The translations under genes were made by a program, and so were the position numbers. Of a stretch of 64,000 bases of DNA, positions 22,855-57,768 are shown in pieces. Every line of letters starts with the position of its first letter. Position 1 is the stretch's first letter. This DNA comes from Macrostomum lignano (taxonomy: Eukaryota). The notes beneath the pieces were generated by a model. It saw only the letters and a list, made by a program, of their open reading frames with translations. It was not told where the DNA came from and did not search any database. The DNA lies in NCBI GenBank assembly GCA_002269645.1, contig NIVC01003947.1, positions 4,300-68,299 on the forward strand, read 5' to 3'.

Positions 22855-23730
22855 AGTAGTAGTATGTTATAAGGGGCTGCGCCACACTTATCGCTCGGGC
22901 GCATTGCGCGCCAGCTCGCTGGATGACTCAGCCCCTTATAACATACTACTACTACTACCGGGAGGTCATAGTTGCAAGTGTGTGTGTGATAAATATAAAA
23001 ATATATAAATATACATATATCTGTGAGTGAGGGTGTTGAGGGTGAGGGCATGTGGGGGCATTGGCCTGTGGTATATTTCACAGAACACAGATTTTCCGGA
23101 ATTTTTATACTTTTTAAAAAGGGGGGTGCCCTCGCCCTCATGCCCTCACTCATTTTGAAAATCACTAAAAACAGGTGAAAAATGACTAAAAACAGGTGAA
23201 AATGGTCTGAAAACAGCGATTTTTTGTAATTTTAAAAAATTTTGAAAAAGTGCAATTTTCACGATTCCAGCTCTAAAACCATGAGAAAGGTTGGATTCAC
23301 GGGTCAATTTAATGCAATTTCAGGTATATACAATATGAAAGTGTCATCCAATTCAACGATAGTAATATATATATATATATATAAAATGGCCTTCAGTAAA
23401 CCATTATTTCTAGGAAATGCTTTAGATATTCAGTCAGCTATAACAAAACTGCCACTTGTCAACTCTGCAACAATGAAAAGCAGCACTCAACATTTCTATT
23501 GGCTTGCTGAAACATGAATAAATTCTGATGCAGATTTTGCACAATAGAATTACTTCTGAATTGCAAAATAAAATTCTCCTTCACCCTGTGGGACTGAATG
23601 TATTCGAATTGTAGACAGCATTGTTATCACGATGACTAAGAATCATGGCTTCTTCCATATCTTCATCACCTCTGTCTTCTATTCTCTCTGACTCACTTAA
23701 AAACCCTCCAGCATCATGCAAAGAATTAAA
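22855..23730 (+). repeat. Left TIR (~876 bp)
   Basis: Reverse complement of 40254-41112; homology ends at gcaaagaattaaa (23730) / tttaattctttgc (40254). Confidence 0.95.
23386..23517 (+). CDS. 43-aa TIR-encoded ORF, paralogous to exon 1 of the PLA2-integrase gene
   Basis: MAFSKPLFLGNALDIQSAITKLP vs MAFNIPLFLGSALDIQSAMTKLP; TAAAATG start; also open in the right TIR. Confidence 0.45.
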   Translation: MAFSKPLFLGNALDIQSAITKLPLVNSATMKSSTQHFYWLAET

Positions 23731-23907
23731 ATACTCGCAGTAAAATACAATCTACCACTCATGGCACAGGCAGGAAGAGGCACAGGCTCTAAAGGCGACA
23801 GGCGCAAATGTAGCGAAAATTAAGAAGACAAAGTGTAATGCTAAAGTTGGATTATCTATAGAAATTTGCCCAAAAGAAAGCAAAAATGTTAAATTTTCTT
23901 AGAAAAA

Positions 23908-24251
23908 ATGGAAGCTAATAACCCAAATGTTCGAAATCCTCTGCCACAAAAATACTATGATTCTATTATAAATTTCTCTCAAATAAAAACACCCACTCGA
24001 AAGGCTCGACTAATTGAAGAAATTGATAAAGCTTACGATGAATATAAAGCAGAAATATTAAAACACAGCGATTGTAAATGCCCCCATATTTGTATTCATT
24101 CAGAGTATATCTTGCACATGTTGATAAATGGGCATTGATTTCGAGACAGCACATAAGGAATGATGAATTTTTCGTCATGCTTAAGTTGAACATTTTCAAA
24201 CTCCCCATAACCCTTGAGAAGTACATTGAAACTGATGAATTATATTGTTAA
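23908..24251 (+). CDS. Polinton hypothetical protein (one apparent frameshift near 24120)
   Basis: AAAAATG start; ORF 23908-24138 continues in another frame (VDKWALISRQ...DELYC*). Confidence 0.5.
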
Positions 24252-24267
24252 ATTTATTTTAAATAAA

Positions 24268-26724
24268 ATGGAAAGAAAAAATCAAAACGATTCAAGTTTC
24301 TCTCCTGTGATCGTACAGGATCCGCTTCAAAACCATGATGCCCCACCACCAAGATTGACAAATTTAAAACAAACAAAATCGTACGATAAACTAATTAATC
24401 TCTATGGAGAACTTAATTTTATATTCGGAGTTGCAGTATAACATGGAATAGTAAAACAAAGAAAAAAATACCATCAGGAATGCCAACCAAAGCAGATAGG
24501 AATTCAACCTCCCACCATTTCGACCAGAGGTAGACAACATGATTTGGATAGATACTAGAAACTCAAATATAACCGTAATCGATATTGATAATGCTGACCT
24601 ATGCCCTGGTTGAATGAACTGTGTATGACTCATTGTGATTGGATTGTTCAGACAAACAAGGGACACCACTTTTACTTTAACAAGGTAGATGGATTGAAAG
24701 TAACGATTCAACAAAGTGTGGGTTTTGATATTCCAGCTTAGTATTTGCTCCACCAGGTTTCTATTATGTCGATGGTGAAATTAGGGAATACAAACGTATA
24801 AAGCCCGAAAGGTTAATAGACATGCCAGATGTAATTTTGATGAGATAAATAGATTAATTAAGCCACAGGATAAAAATGAAATCCAAGAACAAGATAAACA
24901 GGCACTAAAAAGCACCGTTCCATCACCCAGTTGTGAAGGAGTTTCAAAGTTGTTAAGTATAATACAACACAAAAACCAAGACTATGATTCTTGGTACAAG
25001 GTAGCACTTATACTCCGCGACATAGACAGTGGTGATGAAATGTACAAAGTATTCACTGATTGGTCAAAAGTAAATTATGATAAGTTCGATTCCGAATCAT
25101 GTAAAAATGTGTGGAATAGCACCAGTACCAGCTCTGCTGATGCACAGGACAGACTTACTATCGGTACACTAAAGAAATGGGCTAGTGAAGAAAATTATTG
25201 TAAATATAAGGAATGGAAAAGCAAATATGATTACTATGGTAGGATTGAGTATCTTGATGATAATTTCACTGACGTTAACATAACCAACTTTGTTTATGAA
25301 TATAAGAAGAATAATATAATTTACAATAGCGATGGTGTTTACTATTTTGATGATGATAAGTGGAGAGAACTAAGTAGTATAAATGACATATTTCTTAAAA
25401 TATCACACCTTGTCAGCAGTGAGTTAAACCACCGAAAGACTAGACTCGAAATTGCAATTAAGAAGGCGGCTGATGATAAAGAGAAGTTAAAAGCACTTGA
25501 AAAGAAACTACAGAGTACAATGAAGAATATAAATTCAATACAAGGAGCCAACAAACTCAAACAGGTAACTACTTTGTTCAAAGAGAGGTTTACTAACAAT
25601 GAAATTGAATTCGACATGAAATGGAATTTGCTAGGGTTTAACGATGGAGTATATGATCTCGCTACAGGTGAGTTTCGCGAGTATAGATATGACGATTACG
25701 TTACTAAATCGGTGGGATATAATTACTCGGATGTACTTAGAGTGAGTGATGACGACTATGACTTCATTGTTAATCTGCATAACCAAATTCATCCCGATCC
25801 AGAAAATAGAAAAGTTGGGAATCCGTTATAGCCACAGCTCTAATGGGTAAGAATGTTGAAAACTTTATAATGTTTGATGGCGCTGGTGGAAATGGCAAGG
25901 GGTTGAGGACAACCTACTTCTTAGAACTCTAGGATCTGATTATGCAGCACCACTGAGTCCTGATGTTTTGAATTCACCAATAAGAATAGACAGGCCACAA
26001 CCAGCCCTAGCACAAATTAATAAAAAGAGGTTGGTTATCAGTCAAGAAGTAAGTGGTGTCTTGAACAATGCATCAATAAAATTACTAACTGGCGGTGGGG
26101 TTATCCAAGCTAGAAATTTATATTCAAGCCAGTGTAATGTCGTTTTACACGCAACCCTAATAGTCGAATGCAACAACAAGCCTGACTTTAGACAAAATAT
26201 TGGAGATGCAGAAAAAAGACGAATTATAAATATTAATTACCCATGTAAATATACAACAGATACCGACATCATTGATCCTGAGAAACACACTTACAAGGCC
26301 GATCATATTTAAAAGTGAGGAGTTTAAGACTAAATATAAGTTTGCTGAGATGAAAAACCTACTAGAAATTTTCAAGCAAACAAAGGGTGAAATATATCGA
26401 TCGAAAAGCGTAATTGAAAACACTAATGAATTCATACAAAATTGTAATTGGTTTTCTCACTTCTTTGAAGAGAATTATGAATTTTTAGAAACTGAGGAAA
26501 AAACATTTATGCTTATTAGAGAAATTTACACTGCCGCAACAGAGAGTGAATACTATAGGACTCTAGCCCAACGTGAGAAACGTGAATTCCAACAACAATA
26601 CATAACAGATTTCTTCAAGAATCACAAAGACTATTGTAAGTATTATAAGGATAGATATAGGCGTAGGATAGATGGTAAACAGCAAGAAACTAGAAATATT
26701 CTGTTTTACTGTGTAAAAAAATAA
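24268..26724 (+). pseudogene. D5-like primase-helicase (Prim-Pol/AEP + PriCT-2 + D5_N + SF3 helicase), frameshifted
   Basis: Across frames: VIDID, TNKGHHFYF and VFAPP (Prim-Pol); DYDSWYKVAL..FTDWSK (PriCT-2); LLGFNDGVYDL (D5_N); Walker A GAGGNGKG (~25878-25901); SQE Walker B; ECNNKP. Confidence 0.88.
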
Positions 26725-26933
26725 ACGAAGATGTTATCAATGAGATTACATTGGCTGATGAGGAATAGATCTGATAGGATCCAAATAATATCTTTTATCA
26801 TCTAACGGACTCATTGTTTGTTTCATAATCTCACGAATATATATTTTATTTTTTTCAGATACAGTCATACTTACTCTACCTCTTTGAATATCTTTGTAAT
26901 CTGTCAATAGTATGTTTTTAAATGTTTCAAACT

Positions 26934-29808
26934 TTATATTTGTACTGCCTTTATCAACTCCCTTGATCTTAACACACTCCCTGAAACTGTAGTGAAAGCA
27001 TACTCCTTTGACCGCAGGAATACAGCTTCGGAAATTATTGAGCCATTCATTTCATCTTTCAACTTTCCAATGACTTTCTTGTTCGTCTCGGAGTATAGTG
27101 GATGCTCTGTTGGATAATCCGATGTGTCTAAGTGTTCTTTAATTTTTTCAAGATCCTCATAAACATCCTGAGTAATCACTGAGAATATTAGCGAATCACA
27201 ATCAGAATAGTGCAATTGACAGCTGTTCCAATTCTTCTCAATAACATTGTAATAGCAATCGTACATTAGCATTTTTGCATAATCCAGAATAGCCATTCCT
27301 AAATAAATTGGCTTGTCACACGCAATTGTCTTTTTGTACATTTGGACACCAACTGCATCCTCACTAAACATAATGAAATCTTTGAAATTTGGTTTAGAAA
27401 AATAACGCCTTGCAGTTTTTTCTTCAGCTACAAGATGAAAGTTCGACCTATTCTTTACATTTTCGATTGTTTTACCGTAGAATGAGTTGTTTAGTAGTTT
27501 CCACAGGTCTTTCTCAAATTTAGTTTTTGCTTCCATTCTCCGCCTGGTATTAAATTCGATGTATTTACTCAACCAGTTTGATTCTTTGAATGAAATAATT
27601 CTATGAACTCTCATAACTCGCATGCCCATCTTCTCATAAAACTCAAGTAGTCTGTGATGTAAAACATATTTCTCCTTGTTGTAAAATGTCAACATCAACT
27701 TGGATTGAACAAACTTTTTCTTTTCGACTTCGATATTGCTTCTGTATGTCAGATAAATCCTCAAATCTAGTTGTTCGTTTCTCAGGAGCCAGTGGATATT
27801 TACTTGTAGCTTTCTTACATTCCTCTGTATATTCAAGGTCAACTTCAAGAAAACAACCCCTGCCATTAGGAATATTCTTGTGATACTCTAGATCATTTTC
27901 AAACTTGAAATCTCCCACAGGTAGATTTTTCATCATTGCTTCACCATATAAATTATTCTTGTCCAAGTATAGCATGTACGACGATTCAGAATTGCTGTCA
28001 TAATTTCTAAATACTTGTTATTCATTTTTTTATATCGATCTCCAAGAACTCCAGAGAAACCGCCGCGAATACCACTTTCTACCATGGATATCATTTCTTT
28101 ATCACCAAGTAATTCCAATTCCACATTAGTATATTTCAACCCACATGCCCACGATAATCCAGAAAGGGAAAAGCAATACGCAGGATCTATCTTGAAATAT
28201 TTCAAAAATGTTGATCGAAACTTCTCAAAAGCATTGACAAATGAGTAAATCTTTCTAATTACTGCTGTTGTATCACTGGGTGGCAAATATTTTATTTCTT
28301 CTTCAGAGAGTGTAAATGGTGGTTCCAAAAACCTAGATCCATCTAAAAACACAACACCACTGGTATAATTCCCCAACTTAATTGCAACATGGTCTTCCGA
28401 TGTTTTAGAAATAAAATCCAATATATATTTTTTATTATTCATTCGTGTTAATGGAGCTATCAAATAGTTTAGATCTTTTCCAGATTCATTCAGAGAAACA
28501 ACGGTACTGTTTGATTCGCCTTGCCCTCCTTGGTATTACATGATTGACATGCTGCGCCGCGATATTTACCATTGTAGTGATTATGCTCTCGAATTTTTTT
28601 ACTATTACAAATGGCCTTGAGCAGAGAAAACATTGTTCTGCCGCTTTGTAATCAGTCTCTTCGACATCACTTAAACTTGGATGTTTATATCTATCCATTT
28701 CATTTTTTATATGCTCAAACTTTTTGATTACGGTTTCAACGAATGATTCCACTGTAGTATTTGAAATAATATCTGATTTTATAATGTCCTCATAGTCGGA
28801 ACTAGTAAAAAGTGTCCATTGTGATAGCTCTAGTGATTTATCATCCATCGTTACATAATCTAATATTGCATAAAACACAAATGGTTTTCTTACACTCATG
28901 TGGTAGTTTTTAAACTTTAATATCCTCTTATCAATCTTTGGAACTTCAATTGACACTTTGAAGTCAGTACAGATTGCTTTATGATTATCCAGTGCATCCT
29001 GGGAGTATTTAACTTGAAGACACTTTCGACAAAGAAAAACCCTGTTGTAATTTTGGGACGTGAGGAATAAACACAAGTCTGTTATTAAACAATAATGATT
29101 TTTGACAAGTAGTAAATCAATAACATTGGGGTTGTCGTAATCTTCTGTCAGACGAATAGAATATATTGACTCTTTAGTATTTATATCCCTTAATCCAAAC
29201 ACATTTATATGAAGACTGTTCAACTTTTCAATCTCAGAGATATCTCGAATGTCCACTGGAAATTTAACGTCTCCTAAGTTTATTTCATTTATATACTGTG
29301 TATACTTACCAACTCTATATCTATGTTCCTTCACAGGATGGAGCTTTGCTAAAATAGACCAGAGAAAGCACCTATTGTCTGTAGTGTTCTTAACATTTAC
29401 TAATGCGTTTGATTTAATTGGAATTGGAATATAAGTTCCTCCTTTCAACTGATTAATGCCAACAACTTTCAACACAATCTTTACTAACTTAACAAAATAA
29501 TATCCCGATCCCCTTTCATTAAAACTATCCTTCCATCCATCGAATTCATCCAGAACATCCTGAATTGTACTTTCTATACTAGTTTCCACTTGGAGAAGAT
29601 TTAACAAAGTTCGATACTTTGAATGATATTGGAACTCAATCCAACTGTCGGTAGTTCCTTTATAAAATTCTGCGACAAAGGAAATTCTGTATTTTATTGA
29701 ATCTCTAGCCATCAAATATTCGGAAAGAATTGGGGAGATTAAACCGCGAATTTCTTCAACGGAGTCGAGATCAAATTCATAAGAGGCCGCTGGTATTTTC
29801 CTTTCCAT
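26934..29808 (-). pseudogene. polB: Protein-primed family B DNA polymerase with EndoVII-like Zn module, 3 apparent frameshifts
   Basis: Motif A YLDKNNLYG, motif B KLLNNSFYGKT, motif C YSDCDS, KVIGKLKDE; N-terminal NNRCFLWSILA; CFLC...REHNHYNGKYRGAACQSCN read across a frameshift. Confidence 0.95.
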
Positions 29809-29832
29809 TTTTAAGAAAAAAATTAAACAGAC

Positions 29833-30572
29833 TCAAGCATAGGGGGGTGCACTTGGAGCATTTGATTGAAGATTGAGTGTTGCCGAGTACTCTTTTGGCT
29901 TATCAGCTAGACCCAATTTTTCTCTCAGATCTTTCTCCAGCAGTTCCTTTTTAATTTTTTCCTTCGCTGAATTACCAAGTCTACTCTCTTTGAGGATTTT
30001 ATCAACGACTTCCGAATGGTTAACTTCTTCAGGCGCAACACAGGCGTCTAACAATTGGTCTCTTTTCTCTCTGTATTCTGAATAAATTGCAGCAGCTGCT
30101 TGAACCTCTTCAAGAGTTAATCTATAATCATCAACTGCTTTTTGGGAGTAAATATACAATCTCTCTCTGTATTGATTTGCCAGATCTCTGAGAAAAATGT
30201 ATTTTGCCTTCTGCTTTTGGCAATGAATTTTCACAGTTGCAAACAACGACGTGGATTTTACAGCTTCAAAACCACTCATTGCCCCGATTACTACTCCAAT
30301 AACTAAGGGATTCAATGTCAGTATCGATGTTGCTATGCCAATTCCTGTAGCAGCCAAGAGACTTACATTTCCTGTCACAATGTTGATCCAATTTATCCTG
30401 CTACTTTGTCGTTTGTACTTTTTACCTTTTTGCTATAAATTGTAAGATCTTTAGTAATGCATTCAATACTGCCTTTGATTTCACCCTTTCTCTGATTGAA
30501 ATAGTCCCGCTCCCTCAAATCTGCTTCATGCAGCTCAACCACAGGATAGATGTGTTCATTTTTTTCATTCAT
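29833..30572 (-). CDS. Polinton membrane-associated coiled-coil protein (frameshift near 30420)
   Basis: TAAAAATG start at 30572 overlaps the fiber stop; KYKRQ..NIVTGNVSLLAATGIGIATSILTLNPLVIGVVIGAM hydrophobic segment. Confidence 0.6.
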
Positions 30573-30574
30573 TT

Positions 30575-31984
30575 TTATGTGGCGATTATGTCTAAAATCG
30601 GATAAAGTTGAAAGCCTGAAACTATAAGAACAGTTGATCCTTCAGTGGTTGAATTAATATGCACTCTATAAACAGAGAATTTTTCGGTGGAAGCTACTTC
30701 GAAATACTTCATCACTCCAGGAACTAAACCAGCGTTTTCGGTAGAAAAAATATTCTTAAAGTCTCTCTTGTTATTGCTTCCTTTCAGAATAAAAATTTTT
30801 GGTTGATTTTTTATAATTTCACTACCCACTGCTTTGGTTCCTTTCAACCCGAATTTCCAAATTCGAATGGACTCGGGAAGTTGTACTTCAATGTAAGAAT
30901 TGGGTTCATTCCTCGATGCCCATTCTGAATTAGATACTACATAACCCCAATTATCTGACGTTTCAAATGCTCCTGATGACGCTACATTGAAACCCCTTTC
31001 TCTATAGTTTTGACGTGTTGCTAGTGGGGGAATATATCCTGTATAAGATTTGAAACCTAGTCCCCGCCTTAGTCGCAGCTCCACTGATTCAAGTGCATTG
31101 TCTACGTATAGCTTTGGTACAGCTTGAAGTCTATCTATAGGCCACACTAAATCATTAACCACTGTTTGTCTCTCAAGTAATTCAACTTTTGTAAGCTTTA
31201 CGGAACCAGAAAAATTAAGAGAATAATGGAAATAATATGAGGGATTGGGTATTTTTTTCCTAAGATGTGCATTGCCTCTTCGTAGTTCAATGGGTGCACT
31301 TTGTTCAACAGGTGTCCAGTTTGTTCCATTTAGGCTCACACTAACAGACCAACCAGGCCACACCTCTCCTTCCAACTTTATCTCTACAACTTTCCTAGCT
31401 CTTTTCAGAAATTGAACTCGTATCCACTTGTCTGAGTCATCTACACTGCTCCATTCTGAAGCTGGGTTTGAATCTGCAACATGATATGCTGCTGAAGAGT
31501 TATGAGAAGCGGTCACTTTCATGTCAGGATGGGAAGCGTTTGAAGTCAGTAATGAAAGAATATTGACTAATTTCGAACTCTCTGTACCTCCCGCAGTACC
31601 TTGCCTTTCTGCTAACAAAGTGTCAATCTCAGTTTTAGAATACATCTTAGTGTCAATCTCAGTTTTAGAATACATCTTAGTGTCAATTTCGGTTTTAGAA
31701 TACATCTTAGTGTCAGTTTCGGTTTTTGTGTAGACATTGTTTACGCGCCCATGAGCATCGTCAATTAATTGTAGCATGGTGATATTCATTGCGTCACTAT
31801 CTTCCTTTGAATAAGAGTCTGAAACATTTCTCTTTGCTAACAATAAATTATCTATTTCCTCTCTCTTATATCCTTCATTTTCATTGATGTATCGATCATC
31901 AGCTAACGCTATTGTTATTCCAGGTGCTATATCATTTGAATTTGACGAGTAACCAAATTGATTGGCAGTATTCTTGTAACTCAT
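30575..31984 (-). CDS. Fiber/receptor-binding-like protein with YSKTEID repeats and two discoidin (F5/8 type C)-like domains
   Basis: Intact 469-aa ORF; 4x10-aa Y(T/S)KTE(T/I)DT(K/L)(M/L) repeats; two SEWxS...(W/Y)I(R/E)VQ..(K/W)..(E/G)..G beta-sandwich patterns. Confidence 0.65.
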   Translation of the reverse strand: MSYKNTANQFGYSSNSNDIAPGITIALADDRYINENEGYKREEIDNLLLAKRNVSDSYSKEDSDAMNITMLQLIDDAHGRVNNVYTKTETDTKMYSKTEIDTKMYSKTEIDTKMYSKTEIDTLLAERQGTAGGTESSKLVNILSLLTSNASHPDMKVTASHNSSAAYHVADSNPASEWSSVDDSDKWIRVQFLKRARKVVEIKLEGEVWPGWSVSVSLNGTNWTPVEQSAPIELRRGNAHLRKKIPNPSYYFHYSLNFSGSVKLTKVELLERQTVVNDLVWPIDRLQAVPKLYVDNALESVELRLRRGLGFKSYTGYIPPLATRQNYRERGFNVASSGAFETSDNWGYVVSNSEWASRNEPNSYIEVQLPESIRIWKFGLKGTKAVGSEIIKNQPKIFILKGSNNKRDFKNIFSTENAGLVPGVMKYFEVASTEKFSVYRVHINSTTEGSTVLIVSGFQLYPILDIIAT

Positions 31985-32412
31985 TTTAATTGCTGCAAAA
32001 TTTCATTATAGCTATCTCCTTTATCGATTCGGTGTAAAAAGTACAGCGACATTTGACCACAAAATTTCTTATCAAAAGTTTGAATTTGTTCTTCCATGTC
32101 TCCACATATTCTATTCTTTGTGTGATTAAACTTTTCCATAATTTCCAGTGTGGGCGGTAGTGCATAGGAATCAAAAAAATAAACCTTATCAGGAGCTGAA
32201 AATATAGCTGAATGATGTATACCCCGTTCTTTCGAAGTGTGAATATTTGTCATAAAGTAACCATACTGTGGTAAATCAACAATTTCATCTCTCATGGCAT
32301 AGCGAAATGGTTTTAACTTGAGATATTTTGCCCAATTTATCAGATCAATATTAGTCGTAGTGTCAGTCCCAAACTTTTGTTTAAATGCATTCCATGTCTC
32401 AGCTTCGCTCAT
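31981..32412 (-). CDS. Adenain-like cysteine protease
   Basis: GIHH..YFFDSYALPP..QIQ..CGQ (H-D-Q-C); start placed at the TAAAAATG, 32412. Confidence 0.9.
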   Translation of the reverse strand: MSEAETWNAFKQKFGTDTTTNIDLINWAKYLKLKPFRYAMRDEIVDLPQYGYFMTNIHTSKERGIHHSAIFSAPDKVYFFDSYALPPTLEIMEKFNHTKNRICGDMEEQIQTFDKKFCGQMSLYFLHRIDKGDSYNEILQQLK

Positions 32413-32421
32413 TTTTAACAC

Positions 32422-33213
32422 TCATATTTGTCGTACGTGTAGATTTATAAATATTTCCTCGCCATCAAAGTCGTATAGAACACCAGACTCATCTTCGATG
32501 ACAAAGTCGAATGTGCTCAACATGTTTGTAGTTAGTGGTAGGTACACAGGATTTGCAGGCTCTTGAATAATTTTACTTCCCATTGGGACAGAGAACGATG
32601 GAATTGAAAGAAGTATTTGCTTATCAATTAAATGATTTCCATTGGCTGGATCAGTGATAAAACCCCCTTTGATATTGAGACAACGAACCATGATCGCACT
32701 TCTAGCTCCGTCTATCCGAGCTGGATTTGGAGCTCTCTCAAATGGTTTCAAATACACTTCCGAATTGAATCCCAACAGTCTTCTAAAGTTATTGGAATGT
32801 GCATCCCTGAAATCAACTTGATACTCTGTGGCTAACCGTAACTCAACTCTACGCGTGTCTAGGCTTGCACTGAAGACAATAGCTCCCTCTTTCCAATCAT
32901 TTGCAGCTGTTAGCAATCTTTGAATCTCACTTGACAGACTTTTAACTTCCCAAGATCCTGCTTGAATCTTTATTTTCTTCCATGTTCTACCACTATCCCT
33001 CGAGTATCGCAACTCATTATTGCCTCCTTCAATATTGTTAATAGCATCAAAGACTGCAAACTTTTTTATACCAGCTTCGTATTCTCGATCTTCATACAAA
33101 TTTATAGGAGTGCCTAGAGTTTGTCGAAATGGGTTTTTAATTGAAAAGAAGTCAAATGTGCGTTGAAACTTTTTACTCAAGAGGATGTTGACTTTTTCTA
33201 TTTCTTTTTCCAT
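32422..33213 (-). CDS. Minor capsid protein (penton)
   Basis: Intact 263 aa with the typical Polinton mCP pattern (NNELRY, I.AGSWEV, RRLLGF, IIQEPANPVYLPL, IEDESG..YDFDGE); lies next to the protease. Confidence 0.85.
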   Translation of the reverse strand: MEKEIEKVNILLSKKFQRTFDFFSIKNPFRQTLGTPINLYEDREYEAGIKKFAVFDAINNIEGGNNELRYSRDSGRTWKKIKIQAGSWEVKSLSSEIQRLLTAANDWKEGAIVFSASLDTRRVELRLATEYQVDFRDAHSNNFRRLLGFNSEVYLKPFERAPNPARIDGARSAIMVRCLNIKGGFITDPANGNHLIDKQILLSIPSFSVPMGSKIIQEPANPVYLPLTTNMLSTFDFVIEDESGVLYDFDGEEIFINLHVRQI

Positions 33214-33215
33214 TT

Positions 33216-33945
33216 TTAAGCAAGTAATTCTGCTAGCTCTTTATCAACATTGTTATGTCCCTCTGCTTTTGCGGCTAGTAATGTCAACACTCTTTCACTG
33301 AGTCCAGATCCCGGTTTTACTCGATATCCTGGTGGATTATCTTTCAATATCCTTACTGCTTGCTTATAATTCCCACTTGATTTGGCCGCTGGATTTTTAC
33401 AGTGTTCAATGAGGTTAACATAATCCTGCAATGTTTGCATCTTGAATTGCTTCAGCTCTTCACCATTTTCAGTTACTTTAGGCATTTTGAACAACTCTTC
33501 AAGATCTTCAGAAAATGGCATTCGAATTCGTTGACAATGATGTCTCGACCTTGTTCATGGAATTCAACATCTATTACAGATGATCCAAATATATATCCAG
33601 CATCAGTTTTTTGAATCCGTATACTAGGCGCTGGTCTTTGAGTTATTGGAATCTTTCCAATTTCTTCAATTATTTTGTCAAATACTTCCAGGGTTCAAAT
33701 CGTCCTTTTGGTGTACTTGATTGCGGAACTGGAACTTTTTGATTCTGAAGTTTATCAACAAGGTTGGCATTGACATCAATAAATTCATCGAGCTTTTCTG
33801 TGACAGGTTTTTGAGCTAATGGAGCCACTCTTGCATATAAACTCTCTTCTCCAATTTTCAAATAGCGTTGAGCATCATTTCTGGATTTGTACGTTTCTCG
33901 CTGCTTTGCTAAATTAATGAGTTCTCTTATATATTCATTAGTCAT
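33216..33945 (-). CDS. Conserved Polinton core-like protein (ORFs 33670-33945 and 33216-33521 joined across frameshifts)
   Basis: KPVTEKL N-terminal part, FSEDLEELF..P..Y...I central part and C-terminal GSGL motif resemble a common Polinton protein; TAAAAATG start. Confidence 0.55.
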
Positions 33946-33947
33946 TT

Positions 33948-34710
33948 TTACAATGGGATTTTAGTTAGAACATCCTTATACAAATCTTGCTCATCCTCAT
34001 CAGCTCTTGTATTTATATAGATATAGCCATACTTCTTTTTCCAAGCCTCTCTACATTTAGCCTTGATATAGCGTTTCGTTTCTATATTTCTAGCAATGTG
34101 ATTCAAGTTTGTATCTTTTTGTTTAAAGATTATGTAACATGTCGTATTCTCCCTGACAGTATTGCGATCTAGTTTGGTAAAATTTTGAGCTAGATAAAAA
34201 CCACAACAGTTTCCATGCCTGCCTCTCTGAAACAGACTTTCCTGAAATGTTTGATTAGCCTCTCCCAAAACATCGTCCAAATCACACATGTCTTTAGTCC
34301 ATTATGAAAAATTTCTTCATTTGGAGTATGGGAAAGAGTGACAGGAATTTTCTCTATTACTTCTGAATTTTCTGATGTGCTTTGCACTCGACCAGGGTTG
34401 GCTGCCTCTCGACAAATATGTCTAATATCTTCAGGAGATGCATCCTCACTCACCTGGTAGACATGATAGAGTGAGTTGATAAGAGAAGGTGGGAGACCAT
34501 TTTCAAAGCCATATTTAGAAACTGATACTCTGGATCCATTTGAGATGCTCTGGGAACATATAAAACTAACTCATTAAAGTCAACTAGTTTTTCAGGACTT
34601 GTAAGAATATGGAATAGTAAATATGTTTTACCCGTATTTGTAGCGCCGATAATACAACATAAAAGAGGATTAGGGAAAATAGGATCATGCTGAAATTTTA
34701 CTTTGGGCAT
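33948..34710 (-). pseudogene. A32/FtsK-like genome packaging ATPase, 2 apparent frameshifts
   Basis: Walker A GATNTGKT, Walker B ..LDD, RGRH, AQNF..L...VREN. Confidence 0.92.
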
Positions 34711-34731
34711 TTAAAAAAAGAAAAAATGACC

Positions 34732-36096
34732 TTATTCGACGCGGGTCATTTGATATTCACTGGTAACTTTTATTACATTCTTTGTTTGTTCAAGAATTAG
34801 TGCAAAAGCAGTCAGCTCAACATTTGTTGACTTCTTGATAAATAATTGAATATTCACTCCACTCTTGACCAGAAACTCATCTTGAGCTGTTAGATCAAAG
34901 CAAAAGATTGGATAGATGGTTAGAAAGTCTTGTTTATTGAATGGAGGAGTTACACCGAAACGGCTGCAGATGTCTTCGTACATTTCATACGCTCTGTGAA
35001 TGTCTTGAGCTACTGGATCAATTTCAACATAATCATTCGGATACATCACCTGATTTAATCTGACTTGAAGCTGGGTTATTTTCACTGCATTTGCTCCAGT
35101 TTTGTAAGACACATACTTGTGATCATTAACTATATATGATGGGTTGTTTACGTCATATTTGAAAGCTACAAAGATTGCAAGTGGCATATTGGAGATGTTG
35201 GCTATGTTCCATGTATATGGACTTCCTTGAATGAGTTGTGGTGGAACCGTTACCCTCTCTGGAAATGATACTGTAATGTCCTTGTTGAGTGATTTTAGAA
35301 AAGCTGCTTCAGCACTGGGTGACAAAGTAATAGCAGGGATCCAAATCTCAAAGCTATTAATAGTTAACTTAGCTTCCGTCCCGGCAGCTCCAAAGAAAAT
35401 TTCAGCATCGTTAGTCTTTCTTGTCCATGTGAATTTATATTTAATTCCTTTGCTAATCTTCTGCCAATCAAGGAACCCAATGAGAGGTGTTAATGATAGT
35501 TTGATTGTTCCACCTCTGTTTGGAGCATTAGTGACATTGTTATAATTTTCAAGCCTCCTAATGTATCCAGTATTCGAATCCTTCTTATTGAGTCTATTTT
35601 TCATAGCGATTGCTGCAGTTCTCACAGCTTCAGCATCTGCGTTGTTTGCTAGAGGTATATCAGAAACAGTCCCAGCATCTCCAGTGTCTGGAATCCATCC
35701 GTATGCTTCTCCAACTTCATTCATTAATTTTGAGTACATTACGGACTTTAAGATTGTGTCATACTCTCCAGGATCATTATAGACTTTCTTTGTTCCTCCA
35801 ATGTCAACTATGAGTTGAGAGAAAAGTCTCATAGGCCAATTATGTTCTAGAGTAATGTTCGTATTCAAGTCGGTGTTATCTCGTTGTGTTATTGAGTATT
35901 TTATACAACCGAATGCCTCTGACATGAGAATGTATGACTCTGTTGAATTGACTTCATGAACTATTTGACCTCCTGCAACATTGAGATTATTAGTGCTACC
36001 TGGAGTTGGAGAAATCTTAATATAGTCTTCTTTCTTTTTGAAAAAGCTAAAAGTTTTGTCCTCATATATGCTCAGTATATCCTTTTTGTTCTCCAT
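34732..36096 (-). CDS. Double jelly-roll major capsid protein (hexon-like)
   Basis: Intact 454-aa beta-rich ORF (LEHNWPMRLFSQ, LQVRLNQVMYP, YPIFCFDLT) located beside the ATPase. Confidence 0.88.
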   Translation of the reverse strand: MENKKDILSIYEDKTFSFFKKKEDYIKISPTPGSTNNLNVAGGQIVHEVNSTESYILMSEAFGCIKYSITQRDNTDLNTNITLEHNWPMRLFSQLIVDIGGTKKVYNDPGEYDTILKSVMYSKLMNEVGEAYGWIPDTGDAGTVSDIPLANNADAEAVRTAAIAMKNRLNKKDSNTGYIRRLENYNNVTNAPNRGGTIKLSLTPLIGFLDWQKISKGIKYKFTWTRKTNDAEIFFGAAGTEAKLTINSFEIWIPAITLSPSAEAAFLKSLNKDITVSFPERVTVPPQLIQGSPYTWNIANISNMPLAIFVAFKYDVNNPSYIVNDHKYVSYKTGANAVKITQLQVRLNQVMYPNDYVEIDPVAQDIHRAYEMYEDICSRFGVTPPFNKQDFLTIYPIFCFDLTAQDEFLVKSGVNIQLFIKKSTNVELTAFALILEQTKNVIKVTSEYQMTRVE

Positions 36097-36116
36097 TTTT
36101 ATAAGAGAAATTTCAA

Positions 36117-36569
36117 CTAAGCTTCATGAGGTCTAAGAATTATCCCATTACCCTGTTTCTCCTTTTCAACTTTAAAAGTCTTTAGCAGCCACTTGACTGC
36201 TTCGCTGGGTACTTGTTCGACTCTTTTAGCCGCATCAACTAATACTCCACTCCCTTGAGCCTTTTTCAACTCTTCTAGTTTTTGCCGTTCAATGCTTTCT
36301 ATTGTCTTATTATGTTTAGCATTGTTGGCTGTATTAACACTTTTTGCAATCATTGTACCAACTCCTGAGGCTGCTCCGATACCACCCAAAATTGCTGGTA
36401 GTAAGCCTAATAGAGGAATTATTCCACCTTCATGTTCTTTCTGTTTCTCTTGCAATTCTCGAATCTTCTCTTTAGAAAGATATTGCTTTTGCTTATTTAC
36501 AGTAACATATCTTGGTTTTCCCTCTCGAACATATCGATTGAGTCTTGCTTCAGTGTTTTTCTCGCTCAT
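36117..36569 (-). CDS. Adenovirus pX-like membrane-active virion protein
   Basis: EGGIIPLLGLLPAILGGIGAASGVG resembles the adenoviral pX C-terminal GGFLPALIPIIAAAI segment; basic N-terminus; GSG and GNG motifs. Confidence 0.65.
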   Translation of the reverse strand: MSEKNTEARLNRYVREGKPRYVTVNKQKQYLSKEKIRELQEKQKEHEGGIIPLLGLLPAILGGIGAASGVGTMIAKSVNTANNAKHNKTIESIERQKLEELKKAQGSGVLVDAAKRVEQVPSEAVKWLLKTFKVEKEKQGNGIILRPHEA

Positions 36570-36577
36570 TTTTAAGG

Positions 36578-37000
36578 TCAGAATTTCTTCAAACCATTGC
36601 CTTGTCTCAAAGACACTTGAGACTGTTCTGCTGTTCCTAGAGCCTTTTTAACAATATCTTGAATAGCCTTATTTGATTGAGAAGCTATCTGTTGCTCTTC
36701 TTCCATTCTTTTCTTTGCTTCTTTATCTCTACGTTTCTTTTTAATATATTCCAGTTCCTCACCTGCTTTAGACATGTCACTGTATGATTTCTTCGCATCG
36801 AATATGTTCTTCGCTGTGGTAGCTGTTTTACCTATTGCATCAGCTCCACTCACAATTTTACTTCCATGATTTGATAAAAAGTTTGTGACACCACTGATCA
36901 TATCACCAATTCCTTCACCCTCTTTATCAGCTAGTAGTTGTGAATCAGACGTTTCAATCTGACCTTTCGCCCGTTTGCAGTTTGTTCGATAGGCGCTCAT
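36578..37000 (-). CDS. Small virion protein with an amphipathic helix (pVI-like)
   Basis: Start at CTAAAAATG (37000); GEGIGDMISGVTNFLSNHG amphipathic segment; C-terminal QGNGLKKF. Confidence 0.55.
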   Translation of the reverse strand: MSAYRTNCKRAKGQIETSDSQLLADKEGEGIGDMISGVTNFLSNHGSKIVSGADAIGKTATTAKNIFDAKKSYSDMSKAGEELEYIKKKRRDKEAKKRMEEEQQIASQSNKAIQDIVKKALGTAEQSQVSLRQGNGLKKF

Positions 37001-39203
37001 TTTTAGTTGAAAAATTTGCTGGTAGAAGCTGGGATTTGTAAAATGATCCAATGATTTCTTCTCCATTCTCATCCTCAATAATGTAGGTTATGGGATTGGA
37101 GTAAACTATTTTCTTTATCCTAAACACTTCTGAAATTTTCCAATATCCTCTTCGACCCTTTTCAAAGTGCTCCTTATATCTATAGATATGAACTTTGTCA
37201 CCTACTTTGAAGTTTGGTTTCTCATTTGAATACTCGAAAGTTGGCTTTGGTACTCGCTCAGGATGTTTAGATGCTTCTGAAGGAGTTATCAGAATCTCAG
37301 AATGGATTGTGTTGTTGTATTTTTCAACAATAGCTGGCAATGTGTGGAGCCACTTCTGATTACCCTGTAGATCAAATTCAAACCAGAGTTTATTTGTGAG
37401 AGTACGATTGAACCTCTCAATCATTGCATTCTTGGACTCGCCATAAATTGAAAACATCTTGTTAATATATTCACCCCTTTCATCCTTCTTTCTAATGTTG
37501 TCTTTTGAAAACGAGTATAGCTTGTACATATGCTGATTATAAAACTCCTTGCCTTCATCTACACAAAGTCTCTCTGATCGTCTTCCTGATTCCTTAAATA
37601 CTTTTTGGAAAGCTTCTGCAACTTCCGCTCCCGTCTTTGTTTTCAAAGGAACTGCCCAGGCGTAACGTGTAAAACCATCTATGATAGTTAGAGCATATTT
37701 GTAACCTCTTTCGGGCGGTAGGATAATGATATCTGCATGCCAAATTGTGTCTTTTGCATAGTGAATCATTTTTCTAAATACTCTTGGCTTTCGATATTCT
37801 TTATGCAATTTTACTGCATCTTCATAGCTAAGACCCTTACCATAAATTGTTAGACAGTCTATACAATTGTTGGGGTTGTGAGTATGAATGCCTAATCCAA
37901 ACCGAACTTTAGCCTTGATAATACGCTTTACTAGATTTCGAATGAGTCTCTCTTTCACAGACAAGTCACTGGTTGGAATAGCATCTAAATCAGCTATCAT
38001 TTTTTCATCAGCTATATGCTTCTTTGCTAGAGCTTCCTCTGGATTTGAAGAAGTGTTTTCAGCATCTCTATAGTTTTTGTCATGATAGTAAGCAGTCCAA
38101 TCGATTGGGTTAATTGGTAGACTGTCATACCGAGGCCGGTCTGTAATTGGATTGAGTCTCTTGTCTAAATTTGTACCGGGCAGTTGATCCTCAGTCTTTC
38201 GAAAGAGGCTGGACTTTATCTTAAGGCATCATCAGGATTGACCAGATCCTTCAGCCCCACCTCCATAAAGTCTCTGAACCTTCTCCATATCCTTGTCAAC
38301 TTTAATGGACGTACCATAGGTACTCGATCAAAGATCGGACTTAGGAGCTTGGCTGCGGATTTCCACCATGTCCTCAAGCTTGTTACCGTTGGGAACAGGA
38401 ATTACCTGTGTTCCTTCAGAAGATTTCTCAGCTGAAGTGGTACTTGAGGCTATTGAAGGAGTTCCCGCAATTTGAAGGTGTCGCCATTCACTAAGCACTT
38501 GTTTAACCTTGGTTATAATGTTTGTGTATTTATCCCGATAAAGAAATTTCAATGCAAAATCGCCTGTTACAAGGGTGATTCCATTGTCTAGTAAAATATT
38601 CTTAGGTTCGTTTGCAGTTTTATTGATGCATACATAAAACAACTGGTAGGTGGGATTAGACTTTTTATAGTCTAATAGTTTCCGATAGTTACTTTCACGA
38701 CTTGAGGAATTGTCTGTTTTATCAGAAGATTTAAGCTCTAATGCAATCTTTCGCTCAACGTGAACCAGGTCAATCTTTTTTACCTTTTCGAATCCAAAAT
38801 ATTTTTCTGCTAAAACTTCATATAGTCTACCTAGTCTCATTTGAATAACTTTAATCTTGTGTGAAATTATTAGCTCTTCTTGAAATAAATCGCAAAGAAT
38901 TTGGTCATACCCCACCTTGTCGTCAATTGGTTTCAAGAGAATTTCTCGAATTTTTTGCTCCATTTTTACTTTAAAAAATTTAACAAGTGCTTATCGATCG
39001 CCCTGAAGGGACGCGAGCTCTGCTCGATGACTAGCAAGGACATTGACTTTCCTCACTCAGGCCACAAGGTAACCTGCAAAAGAATACCCTGGAATATGAA
39101 ATTCTCCAGGATATTTTCCAGTAGAGAAGATGGGTGGCAGTTTTGTCATAGCTGACTGAATGTCTAATGCAGAACCAAGAAATAGTGGTATATTGAAGGC
39201 CAT
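36954..39203 (-). CDS. PLA2-like domain fused to a retroviral-type (RVE) integrase; join(39072-39203, 36954-38180), 452 aa after group I splicing
   Basis: Exon 1 (44 codons, TAAAATG start) ends ...EFHIPGYSFAG; exon 2 begins PGTNLDKRL..PINPIDWTAYYHD..Y and is in frame with the integrase (WHAD, CVDEGKEF, IERFNRTL). Confidence 0.88.
38181..39071 (-). ncRNA. Group I self-splicing intron, IC1-like (891 nt)
   Basis: P AAAUUGCGGGAA (38462-38473), Q AAUCCGCAGC (38352-38361), R GUUCAGAGACUUUA (38266-38279), S AAGAUAAAGUCC (38211-38222); exon ends in U paired to G in P1; intron ends in G; removal restores GPGT. Confidence 0.93.
38328..38963 (-). CDS. Intron-encoded PD-(D/E)xK restriction-endonuclease-like protein (candidate homing endonuclease)
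   Basis: Intact 211-aa ORF with Q..LG.LYE...IDL...IALELKS..TDNSSS...Y.KL; TAAAAATG start; looped out by a 12-bp helix. Confidence 0.75.
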   Translation of the reverse strand: MEQKIREILLKPIDDKVGYDQILCDLFQEELIISHKIKVIQMRLGRLYEVLAEKYFGFEKVKKIDLVHVERKIALELKSSDKTDNSSSRESNYRKLLDYKKSNPTYQLFYVCINKTANEPKNILLDNGITLVTGDFALKFLYRDKYTNIITKVKQVLSEWRHLQIAGTPSIASSTTSAEKSSEGTQVIPVPNGNKLEDMVEIRSQAPKSDL

Positions 39204-39470
39204 TTTATAGAGATTTTTTTATTTCTTTATTTTCACTTGTAAAGTGTTTGTATACATTCCATTGAGTACTTAATAGACTGAATTTTAAGACAAGTTGAGA
39301 CAATAATCCAAAGCGACATGTTACACAAAACAGATCGCTGATAAAAGATCTTGGTATATTTTAAAAGAAACTTATAAGACGATGCATAACAATCCTTAGT
39401 CACAGTCACAATGACAATCCTTAGTCACAGTCCTTACAGTCCTCCTTAGTCACAGTCACAGTGATAGTCC

Positions 39471-39887
39471 TTAGTCACTCATGTCTTGGTCTTGAGCAGC
39501 TTGGTCTTGAGCAGCTTGGTTTTGAGCAGCTTGGTCTTGAGCAGCTTGGTCTTGAGCAGCTTGGTTTTGAGCAGCTTGTTGTTGAGCATCCTCGTATGTC
39601 GGAGGTGCCTCTGGAACGTCTACATCTAGCGAGCGCTCGATTTCTAGTTGGCGTTGATTTTCTAAGATAGAACGATCCTTCGCAATGGTTTTTTTAACTA
39701 GCCTAAGCATCGCAATGTCGTTCTCAATTTTGTCGAAGTATACGCGATAATGCTCAAGGAATTGATTCTCATTTGTAGACGTGACGAAGCTAGTATTGGG
39801 GTATTGTGTGTGAATCAAACCTCTCAAATTGTTTCTCTCTTGTGTGTTCACAAGTATTCTAGCACGCCTAGTTGGATTTCCGGGCAT
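39471..39887 (-). CDS. Polinton hypothetical protein with AAQ(N/D)Q repeats
   Basis: 138-aa ORF with a non-repetitive N-terminal part and 15-bp tandem repeats at the C-terminus. Confidence 0.5.
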   Translation of the reverse strand: MPGNPTRRARILVNTQERNNLRGLIHTQYPNTSFVTSTNENQFLEHYRVYFDKIENDIAMLRLVKKTIAKDRSILENQRQLEIERSLDVDVPEAPPTYEDAQQQAAQNQAAQDQAAQDQAAQNQAAQDQAAQDQDMSD

Positions 39888-40253
39888 TCTGTTCGTTCGG
39901 AATGAAAACTGATAATTTAAGCAGAGGACACTTGTTGCGGATACTCTATTTTGGGTATGCCCTTAAATGCTGTCTAAAATGTCTTATGCCAGCCGCTAAT
40001 TGGTTGCCACTGCCCTGCCACTGCCCTGCCACTGCCCTGCCACTGCCTTGCCACTGCCCTGTGGCAGTGACAGATTTTTTCTCTCTAGAGTGAGTGAGTA
40101 GCAGTGTGTTATACGGGGCTGAGTCATCCAGCGGCAGCGAGCTGGCGCGCAATGCGCCCGAGCAATAAGTGTGGCATTGAAGTGGGTTGCAAATGCATGC
40201 TGTAGCAGCTTGGAGGGGAGTTGATGAATGGCTGTTCGCAGCTAATCTAAACC

Positions 40254-41112
40254 TTTAATTCTTTGCATGATGCTGGAGGGTTTTTGAGTGAGTCAGAGAG
40301 AATAGAAGACAGAGGTGATGAAGATATGGAAGAAGCCATGATTCTTAGTCATCGTGATAACAATGCTGTCTACAATTCGAATACATTCAGTCCCACAGGG
40401 TGAAGGAGAATTTTTTTGCAATTCAGAAGTAATTCTATTGTGCAAAATCTGCATCAGAATTTATTCATGTTTCAGCAAGCCAATAGAAATGTTGAGTGCT
40501 GCTTTTCATTGTTGCAGAGTTGACAAGTGGTAGTTTTGTTATAGCTGACTGAATATCTAAAGCATTTCCTAGAAATATTGGTTTACTGAAGGCCATTTTA
40601 TATATATATAATTTACTATCGTTGAATTGGATGACACTTTCATATTGTATATACCTGAAATTGCATTAAATTGACCCGAGGATCCAACTTTTCTCATGGT
40701 TTTAGAGCTGGAATCGTGAAAATTGCACTTTTTCAAAATTTTTGAAAATCACAAAAAATCGCTGTTTTCAGACCATTTTCACCTGTTTTTAGTCATTTTT
40801 CACTTATTTTTAGTGATTTTCAAAATGAGTGAGGGCATGAGGGCGAGGGCACCCCCCCTTTTTAAAAGTATAAAAATTCCGGAAATTCTGTGTTCTGTGA
40901 AATATTCCACAGGCCAATGCCCCCACATGCCCTCACCCTCAACACCCTCAGTCACAGATATATGTATTTTTATATTTATCACACACCCCACTTGAATCCA
41001 TGACCTCCTGGTAGTAGTAGTATGTTATAAGGGGCTGAGTCATCCAGCGAGCTGGCGCGCAATGCGCCCGAGCAATTAAGTGTGGCGCAGCCCCTTATAA
41101 CATACTACTACT
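40254..41112 (-). repeat. Right TIR (~859 bp)
   Basis: Reverse complement of 22855-23730; ends ...CATACTACTACT. Confidence 0.95.
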
Positions 41113-43834: not shown

Positions 43835-44395
43835 CCGCAGGAGCCGCTGCACCAAACAGAGCGGCCCATGCTGCCCTATGAGTCAAGTGAAGATAGCGAA
43901 GTTGATCTAGCCAAACAGCCTGCTCCGGAACAGCAACCCACAGCCCAGCCTGACCTGTGAGGCAGCCAGCTATTCAAACCAAGCTTGCGCCATCCGGAGT
44001 GTCTAGCTATTTTGTCCTGCTCAGGTCAAAAGACCCCTAGCTTGAGATCTTGTCCTTAGCTGAGGGCACCTAAGGTGAATCTCCCCTTTGCTGTTTATTC
44101 TTTGTTCCACTCATGCTGAGCCTGGGAAATTTTGTTAGGGCCTTTATTTTTGGCTTGGTTTCCCAGTGCTTTCTATTCTACCCCATTTGTTAAAACTCCT
44201 TATGGAGATCTCTGTATGATAACTTGGTCACCACGTTAGCCTCTACTTTGCGATTTAACCAAGGAGGAGACACTTCTGCTATTCTTAATATCTAAATTCT
44301 ATGCGAGGCTCTGCCTTCTTACTGCAATACCTGTTTAATGTGAGCCTTACGGGCCTTCCTTTTTCAAATTCTGATTGCGCCCCCCTGCCTGGCAG

Positions 44396-57273: not shown

Positions 57274-57768
57274 ATGATGGCACTGATTGCAGCCAGAATG
57301 AGAGTACTATTCGCTATTGACAGCAGCGAGCACGCCAAACGTGCATTGACTTGGTTTGCCAAACTATACGCCAATCGTTTATCGCCTGGCGACACGGCTC
57401 TGCTGTTTCTGTTTGTGGCCGAGCCGCCGTCCTTCGGTCCGAGCCTGTCCACGCCGGAGCTGTACGCCGGCGCAATCAACGATGCCGTCGCTGAAGGCCG
57501 CTCCCTGGCCGTGGAGATCAAGACCACCTGCGCTCGGCTGGGGCTCGCCAGTTTGGCCAATCGGCTGGAATTTCTCGAACGGCTGGGCCACGGAGCTGGC
57601 CCGTCTATAGTTCAGGTGGCTCACGAGGAAGCCGTCGAGCTTATTGTTATGGGTAGCCGCGGCTCCGGCCTACTTCGGCGCACCTTTCTAGGCAGCGTTA
57701 GCGACTACGTGCTGCATCATTCTCATGTGCCTGTGATTGTTGTGCCGCCCCCTGCGGTGCAGCACTAG
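57274..57768 (+). CDS. Universal stress protein (USP domain), intronless
   Basis: RVLFAIDSSEHAKRAL, IVMGSRGSGLLRRTFLGSVSDYVLHHSHVPVIVVP; start may be 57298. Confidence 0.93.
   Translation: MMALIAARMRVLFAIDSSEHAKRALTWFAKLYANRLSPGDTALLFLFVAEPPSFGPSLSTPELYAGAINDAVAEGRSLAVEIKTTCARLGLASLANRLEFLERLGHGAGPSIVQVAHEEAVELIVMGSRGSGLLRRTFLGSVSDYVLHHSHVPVIVVPPPAVQH

Follow-up and report, generated by a model that had tools for sequence, protein, structure and literature searches.

A group I intron with a restriction-like nuclease in an integrated Polinton virus lacking GGNCC

We analysed a 64-kb stretch of DNA from contig NIVC01003947.1 (the window) that contains an integrated Polinton virus, in which a gene for a phospholipase A2 (PLA2)-like domain fused to an integrase is interrupted by a group I intron. 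The intron, at 39071-38181 on the minus strand, is a real one. A preliminary description, made from the letters of the window, had found it but had missed the two features that are the most unusual, a reading frame within the intron for a nuclease resembling a restriction enzyme, and the loss of the sequence GGNCC from the virus. Taken together, they suggest that this selfish intron spreads by an unusual route. On balance we believe that a restriction enzyme has been co-opted and that the intron homes by cleavage of GGNCC, a reading that is built on the comparison of sequences.

The intron and its ribozyme core

The Rfam search gave a single match within the window, to RF00028 at 38550-38190 on the minus strand, with 82.6 bits (cut-off 50) and an E-value of 1.7e-19. 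The intron has the group I hallmarks, the U.G pair of P1 at the 5' splice site, the terminal G and a G-C pair in P7. Both ends are as first described, 39071 and 38181, since intron-less alleles in the same genome join exon 1 to exon 2 at these positions, and the natural uninterrupted homologue P0178 also sets them. Left unspliced, exon 1 meets a stop after 4 codons, as had also been seen. A spliceosomal intron is ruled out, because the intron ends in UG and the intron-less alleles place the cut at GGT|CC and not at GT-AG.

P1 with its U.G pair, P2, P2.1, P4, P5a, the A-rich bulge, P5b with its GAAA loop, P5c, P6a and P9 could all be placed where the preliminary description had put them, and the change to CUU/AAG that it noted in P7 is present. 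Its P3 was half right. The 5' strand stands (CACCUUC, 38480-38474), but the 3' strand is GGAGGUG at 38264-38258, and the GAAGGU proposed in its place belongs to the P6/J6-7 region. P5abc with an A-rich bulge and a GAAA loop, together with P2.1, are features of the IC1 subgroup as known from Tetrahymena, and all of them are found in the intron; P9.1 and P9.2 are absent and a short P9 alone precedes the terminal G. IC2 introns likewise have P5a-d (PMC11835236).

A structure of 59 pairs was fitted to six cores, those of the window, three sister copies, the sister intron L080 and the outside contig L075. It is paired in 98.3% of 352 cells, and in 15 of the 59 pairs both sides have changed, a number reached in 0 of 500 shuffles and set against 0-2 pairs in slid controls, with the reservation that the six cores share a kinship, that the pairs were drawn on one of their number, the window, and that the figures are support and not a probability. 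The P2 of L075 also has compensatory changes. The folding energy of the core alone beats chance weakly (z -1.74, 7 of 100 shuffles as good). The case for the intron rests on the covariance model and the covariation, which bear out the group I intron first described. It is very probable that the intron splices itself. The structure and the need for exon 2 suggest that the ribozyme would excise itself from the phospholipase-integrase transcript.

The stretch occurs in 20 sequencing runs from 8 studies, all under one organism label, none of which is recorded as RNA. Contigs were built from four runs that may be RNA, and none was clearly spliced. The joints in X1 and X6 were rejected as splicing, their letters being those of the intron-less DNA allele. 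In one contig of X2 (depth 3.3) the intron-type end of exon 1 is joined directly to exon 2, but the start of exon 2 is unlike all 28 copies in the assembly, and the contig may stem from a different strain's DNA allele.

The nuclease and the missing GGNCC

The open reading frame (ORF) of the intron starts in the loop of P2.1, and its final ~50 codons read through P3-P6a of the ribozyme. Against the Pfam family PF09553 (RE_Eco47II) it scored 22.9 bits (E 7e-5), below the curated cut-off of 25.9, and it is therefore called Eco47II-like here and not filed as a member; a close homologue, P0004, passes the cut-off with 30.2 bits. The close homologues are 12, none of them named, and all that are long enough to judge end in a peptide that reads through an intron core. 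A profile search gave 275 proteins. PF09553 was found in 35 of the 42 scanned, and 2 of the 42 are fused to a C5 methyltransferase, which argues that the nuclease family comes from restriction-modification systems. The Atlas ranking placed clusters of hypothetical viral proteins first, followed by those of Eco47II and EcoO109I at 0.91. No relatives of the nuclease were found in IMG/VR, and there was one weak relative among host genes.

The predicted structure (pLDDT 73.7) is a bare restriction fold of ~160 residues with no added DNA-binding domain, and residues 162-211 are disordered. EcoO109I is the top structural match (Z 9.7, rmsd 3.9, 163 aligned; the next has Z 6.1), Foldseek matched the model to Ecl18kI and AvaII, and a library of viral folds gave no named close match. 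The residues E49, D65, E76 and K78, which we take to be the PD-(D/E)xK set, are conserved in 13 sequences. The frame is whole in 14 of the 27 copies parsed and broken in the other 13. Of the changes between two subfamilies, 20 are synonymous and 22 non-synonymous, which gives a dN/dS of 0.25 (p 3e-5), and by this measure the ORF is under purifying selection.

EcoO109I cuts at RGGNCCY and AvaII at GGWCC. Eco47II is given as a bacterial type II restriction family in PMC3424549, and its homologues have been assigned GGNCC (PMC10305163). From the family, and from the loss of sites in the virus, it seems likely that the protein of the intron is a restriction-type nuclease that cuts GGNCC. No family of a partner methyltransferase was found with Pfam among the 21 ORFs of the element that were scanned.

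GGNCC is expected 20.1 times in the 18,258 bp of the element and does not occur once. Its four words are the only ones absent among the 1,024 5-mers, and the remaining 15 words of the same shape occur at 0.8-2.1 times the expectation. Gly-Pro is missing from all 4,399 encoded residues, zero being reached in 2 of 5,000 shuffles, and Pro-Gly is found 11 times; when codons were redrawn synonymously, zero GGNCC was reached in 2 of 2,000 draws. The splice site lies inside a GGNCC word, GGT|CC, the Gly-Pro codon pair of the PLA2 loop. This is the sole site that the family retains, present at the junction of intron-less alleles and split by the intron.

The element-like parts of 30 intron-carrying loci, which are not independent, hold 2 GGNCC against 116 expected, both in copies with broken frames. 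The word is absent from 9.7 kb and 9.9 kb of two intron-less sister copies, where about 9.5 would be expected in each, and 13 short intron-less loci have one besides that of the junction. As controls, the AT-rich parts of a distant intron-less Polinton had 12 against 7.2 expected and Wnt loci of the host 153 against 140; L077 was dropped as a control when it proved not to be Polinton DNA. The GGNCC content of a second Polinton family was examined over 0.5 kb. That the element should have lost a 5-bp word throughout its length speaks for a short recognition site, and the evidence on the nuclease points to one of 5 bp.

The intron-less copy at L076:7469-8758 is followed by an oppositely oriented polymerase region of another family (42-63% identical), with 0 GGNCC over 2.8 kb.

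Copies, homing and its alternatives

In a search of the 764-Mb assembly for the intron, 40 of 202 candidates were scored and gave 44 matches. Full-length copies number 28, with identities of 80-100%. All 30 loci that were fetched have the end of exon 1 in common and 28 of them run on into exon 2; a motif count of 3' junctions also gave 28, and the insertion site is the same in 28 of the 28 full copies. The preliminary description had called for a survey of intron-minus alleles in other Polinton copies. The motif of an intron-less junction was found in 36 places, made up of 19 close alleles, 8 places in distant Polinton families and 9 chance matches that were rejected as tandem repeats and not Polintons. 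For 13 of the close alleles the sequence was fetched; their exon 2 is 94-98% identical and they fix the intron ends exactly, and all 19 end exon 1 in C, not U, with GGCCC intact.

A second intron, sister to the first, came to light from loose ends of read contigs. Its motif occurs in 113 places in the assembly, and in the sequencing runs examined it outnumbers the form with the ORF. The one copy read (L080:34-367) is 333 nt long, lacks the ORF, scores 64.6 bits and interrupts the same codon boundary in the second Polinton family. Its P3, P4 and P7 show several compensatory changes. No intron-less junction of the sister type was found by a motif search, whose reach is that of the motif. The family-wide RF00028 search, with 28 candidates scored, missed the sister intron, and the counts are lower bounds. 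L075, a contig from a JGI metagenome, has the same insertion site and arrangement and an ORF that is 50% identical. The cluster P0006 has thirty members on ENA contigs of up to 65 kb, and the intron-nuclease type is seemingly multicopy in another, eukaryote-like sample.

Hairpin-rich inserts of ~30 nt were also seen, in differing loops (P2.1, P5, P5c, P6b) from copy to copy; in the window they lie at 39027-38992 and 38338-38296 on the minus strand, and others are found in L010, L025, L027 and L080. Those within the ORF preserve the frame, and L010 and L027 have an insert in P5c in common with L080, which lacks the ORF. A very small mobile element may explain these inserts, or they may be the mark of an exchange between the two introns.

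Comparison of the window with the copy L010 gave a dS of 0.25 for the intron ORF and 0.04 for exon 2. The presence of the intron goes with the state of exon 2 over its first ~300 nt and not over the remainder. At nt 43-291 the majority of intron-less alleles (8-10 of 12, at most of the informative sites) do not match the majority of those with the intron, and past nt 400 haplotypes are shared, a pattern that fits what would be expected from co-conversion. At positions -6 to -1 the association is built in, as the loci were picked by junction patterns.

A mechanism can be proposed in which the group I intron is mobile, belongs to a Polinton virus and would reach the animal chromosomes when the virus integrates. 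The virus family would have purged GGNCC from its own genome, even losing Gly-Pro dipeptides, and the single site retained, the Gly-Pro codon pair of the PLA2 loop, is the one that the intron occupies. An intron-carrying virus would then have no site and an intron-less sister one, and a cut repaired from the intron-carrying copy would be homing. A five-base cutter, normally useless for homing, would be made specific because the site has been purged from the virus; the specificity would be supplied by the target genome and not by a long recognition sequence. Close intron-less alleles should remain targets since they have kept GGNCC. Unrelated viruses and the DNA of the host, with their many sites, would be cut as well. 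Since the host keeps many GGNCC, the integrated copies would have to be silent, or the protein kept off the host chromatin, and such silence, or activity only in a lytic or cytoplasmic phase, are guesses. The ORF-less sister intron of the second family may represent a late stage in the usual cycle of invasion, fixation and loss.

Several points weigh against this mechanism, besides the low family score of the nuclease and the kinship of the six cores. GGNCC is scarce also in viral contigs in which no intron was found (0 against 11.3 expected in L212, 1 against 20.1 in L207) and about halved in the left flank of the window (28 against 61), so site loss can stem from outside causes. The co-conversion pattern is not proof, since the haplotypes are few and recombine throughout exon 2. 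The 19 intron-less sister alleles are still there, their GGCCC unbroken, and thus homing has not fixed the intron in the family. The density of GGNCC in the host is normal, so that expression in the nucleus would be dangerous, and the translation of the ORF from inside an intron is left unexplained by the model.

One way to read the wider depletion is that the loss of GGNCC was imposed from outside, for instance by the restriction of a helper giant virus, and that the captured nuclease of the intron is now a conventional homing enzyme with a longer, GGNCC-centred site that is safe for the host. We hold this to be unlikely. The methyltransferase fusions and the further viral contigs that avoid GGNCC are in line with an imposed loss, as is the suggestion that methylases of Polinton-like viruses (PLVs) guard against giant-virus restriction (PMC12220804), but this host also has a distant Polinton without such depletion, and no helper virus was seen. 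A longer site has a parallel in I-Ssp6803I, a homing enzyme of PD-(D/E)xK type whose site is 17 bp long (PMC3424549), and all intron-less sister alleles differ from the intron-carrying ones at -6, -4 and -1, as escape would give; the model of the nuclease, however, is a restriction fold and a disordered tail, with nothing extra to bind DNA.

It is less likely still that the nuclease is chiefly a viral weapon against host chromatin or competitors, with purging in place of a methylase, the intron as its vehicle and homing as incidental. The restriction enzymes of chloroviruses have sites of 2-4 bp and are thought to degrade host chromatin (PMC7019647), and here an element without GGNCC, and without a methylase among its scanned ORFs, is found in a host rich in that word. 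But the intron sits exactly within the one retained site, all close homologues that can be judged read into an intron core, and the second family thrives. Since it prospers with the ORF lost in the copy read, the nuclease appears to be dispensable.

That the intron is functional solely in some other host or compartment, such as a protist or a cytoplasmic virus factory, and that the copies in the animal nucleus are passive and never splice, seems improbable to us. Spliced RNA was not demonstrated in the contigs of the four runs, the polymerase, ATPase and primase-helicase genes are broken up in the window copy, as is the nuclease frame in many copies, and the relatives stem from metagenomes. 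Such passengers would, however, not agree with the many near-identical young copies with intact cores, with the compensatory changes between two families within this genome, or with the presence of the stretch in runs of so many studies under a single organism label.

The virus, its animal host and related systems

The assembly has 86 matches to Wnt and 18 to troponin, which is described as a bilaterian novelty (PMC5167519). On contig C67 an intron copy lies at 365,389 and a Wnt exon 129 kb away at 494,225, on C952 the sister intron (223,056) lies 24 kb from Wnt exons, and on C506 intron and Wnt are both present. By these Wnt genes, which lie with introns of both types on contigs other than the window's, the host is an animal, in line with the preliminary description, which placed the intron in a probable animal nuclear genome, and it is probably a bilaterian. 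Copies are spread over more than 100 contigs, and the 13 copies of 18S that were scored are alike (1,780-1,783 bits). The flanks of the window share no repeat with ten Wnt loci in BLAST, no mitochondrial cox1 gene was found beyond one weak fragment, and the markers mir-124 and mir-2 had no match among the 59-60 candidates scored out of 50,000-110,000. A non-animal contaminant or symbiont co-assembled with the animal is very improbable, for although the linkage to animal markers is on other contigs than the window's and its flanks share nothing with the Wnt loci, Wnt stands beside intron copies on three contigs, the copies are so widely spread and the 18S copies are uniform.

In IMG/VR the core motif was found in at least 121 stretches, several of them in giant-virus bins. 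The closest of these, which include L090 and L115, show about 75% likeness over P3-P5c; they sit within an RNA polymerase gene and have a GIY-YIG-like ORF in the same position. At 122 motif sites the profile found no Eco47II-like ORF among 62 long upstream frames. The P1 motif was found at 14 viral loci, none of them Polinton by tblastn, and 0 of the 8 scanned reached the Rfam cut-off. In L202:10001 and L203, giant-virus contigs of IMG/VR, a P1-like start follows an RNA-polymerase-like frame ending in ...DKFSSRAG, which is possibly a related intron. Outside this genome the nearest relatives are a Polinton-like contig from a metagenome and introns of giant-virus type, in agreement with the viral delivery into an animal genome that had been proposed, and the intron was probably virus-borne into the animal DNA. 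We infer that a viral intron scaffold had its nuclease cassette swapped for a restriction enzyme.

The element has the long terminal inverted repeats, the rve integrase and the jelly-roll capsid protein of a Polinton (Table 1), and the intron lies inside a Polinton gene as first reported. In the intact homologue P0178 the same fusion matches PF08398 (E 3.5e-10) and PF00665 (E 6.7e-10). A D5-like primase was found by Pfam. The polymerase-, ATPase- and primase-helicase-like genes are fragmented in the window copy; the pieces labelled polymerase- and ATPase-like gave no Pfam match, and we presume these labels from their motifs. No target-site duplication was seen at the ends of the element.

Each inverted repeat has a short ORF, at 23281-23517 (plus) and about 40595-40455 (minus), that starts like exon 1 (MAFSKPLFLG...) and then diverges. 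The termini (22855-22960 and 41010-41112) form long, imperfect palindromes, and a portion of the hairpin sequence at the ends recurs inside the element at about 40100-40175. About 9 of the 21 ORFs start with TAAA(A)ATG, among them those of the major capsid protein (MCP), the mCP, the protease, the pol, the intron nuclease and exon 1. This resembles a poxvirus-type late promoter, and from such a start the intron ORF may have a promoter of its own. The right end of the element adjoins a broken retrotransposon-like integrase region (41200-44000, with rve at 43134-43439), and further into the right flank there is a gene with a universal stress protein domain (57274-57768, plus; PF00582, E 1e-24).

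Table 1. Positions of the intron, the interrupted gene and the element within the window
Feature	Position	Strand	Remarks
Group I intron	38181..39071	minus	891 nt, first U (39071) to terminal G (38181); ends fixed by intron-less alleles
P1 and P2	39033..39076	minus	exon end and internal guide 39065-39058, U.G at splice site
Ribozyme core (P2.1 3' strand, P3, P4, P5abc, P6, P7, P8, P9, terminal G)	38181..38487	minus	Rfam and covariation
Intron ORF, Eco47II-like PD-(D/E)xK nuclease	38328..38963	minus	211 aa/codons; E49, D65, E76, K78
Exon 1, phospholipase-A2-like/integrase gene	39072..39203	minus	44 codons, the last being the glycine of the PLA2 loop motif
Exon 2	36954..38180	minus	408 codons, remaining PLA2-like domain and rve integrase; PF08398 E 0.0012 (by itself under the cut-off), PF00665 E 5.9e-10
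Integrated Polinton	22855..41112	.	18,258 bp, AGT-repeat termini, 0 GGNCC
Left terminal inverted repeat	22855..23571	plus	
Right terminal inverted repeat	40411..41112	minus	
Double-jelly-roll major capsid protein	34732..36096	minus	PF21738 E 1.9e-13

RF00028 introns have been described in PLVs of Paulinella, Desmodesmus and Rhodomonas (PMC12220804), so the earlier remark that none was described in Polinton-type viruses does not hold. These too lie in genes of integrated Polinton-type viruses in nuclear DNA, but their hosts are protists, they are 309-376 nt long, they interrupt a short gene upstream of the capsid gene, and no nuclease is annotated in that account. The IC1 and IE introns of rDNA with His-Cys box enzymes are likewise nuclear, with a P5abc-type scaffold, an ORF in a peripheral loop and ORF-less derivatives; as described in PMC3679873 they occur in rRNA genes of microbial eukaryotes only and have sites of 15-20 bp, whereas the window intron lies in a protein gene of a provirus in an animal host, encodes a restriction-type fold and is without P9.1/P9.2. 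Chlorovirus and giant-virus introns (PMC7019647; L090 and L115) are also found in protein genes of eukaryotic DNA viruses, and the ORF of L090 and L115 reads into P3-P4, but theirs is an RNA polymerase gene and a GIY-YIG-like ORF.

Restriction folds are used by mobile introns in I-Ssp6803I (PMC3424549) and in the intron nucleases of mirusviruses (PMC12768974). The former differs in being bacterial, of PF11645 and with its 17-bp site (PMC3424549), the window nuclease being PF09553-like, and the PD-(D/E)xK introns of mirusviruses are spliceosomal (PMC12768974). With Eco47II and EcoO109I the window nuclease shares the fold, the catalytic residues and the GGNCC site proposed for it; unlike them it has no partner methyltransferase found in the element, protection is apparently by site loss, and the gene lies in an intron of a eukaryotic virus. 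The alpha adintoviruses with PLA2X are animal Polintons with a parvovirus-like PLA2 domain, which there has a pX-like tail (PMC8502044) and in the window element is fused to the integrase; the main text of PMC8502044 does not mention a group I intron.

Nuclear group I introns have been described as confined to the rRNA genes of microbial eukaryotes (PMC3679873, PMC9223047), and a survey of 42,459 introns reports those of animals in placozoans, corals and sponges only, mostly mitochondrial (PMC11835236). Long recognition sites are given as a hallmark of homing enzymes (PMC3943268). A literature search, with most subscription papers outside its reach, found no group I intron in animal nuclear DNA and no Eco47II-like intron nuclease. 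On the picture as a whole we are evenly divided, that is, that an active, self-splicing intron is being spread through a bilaterian nuclear genome by Polintons and would home with a captured five-base enzyme, its site purged and not methylated, with a single unremovable site where the intron sits, and with an enzyme that would destroy unrelated viruses and the DNA of the host.

If true, a group I intron would for the first time be known from the nuclear genome of an animal, and homing specificity would be reached by a new route. The more than 100 copies of the two related introns in probable bilaterian chromosomes make the function of a ribozyme in an animal nucleus testable in a natural setting. 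Homing and the purging of sites would also imply that the copies meet, replicate as viruses in the same cell and fight with nucleases.

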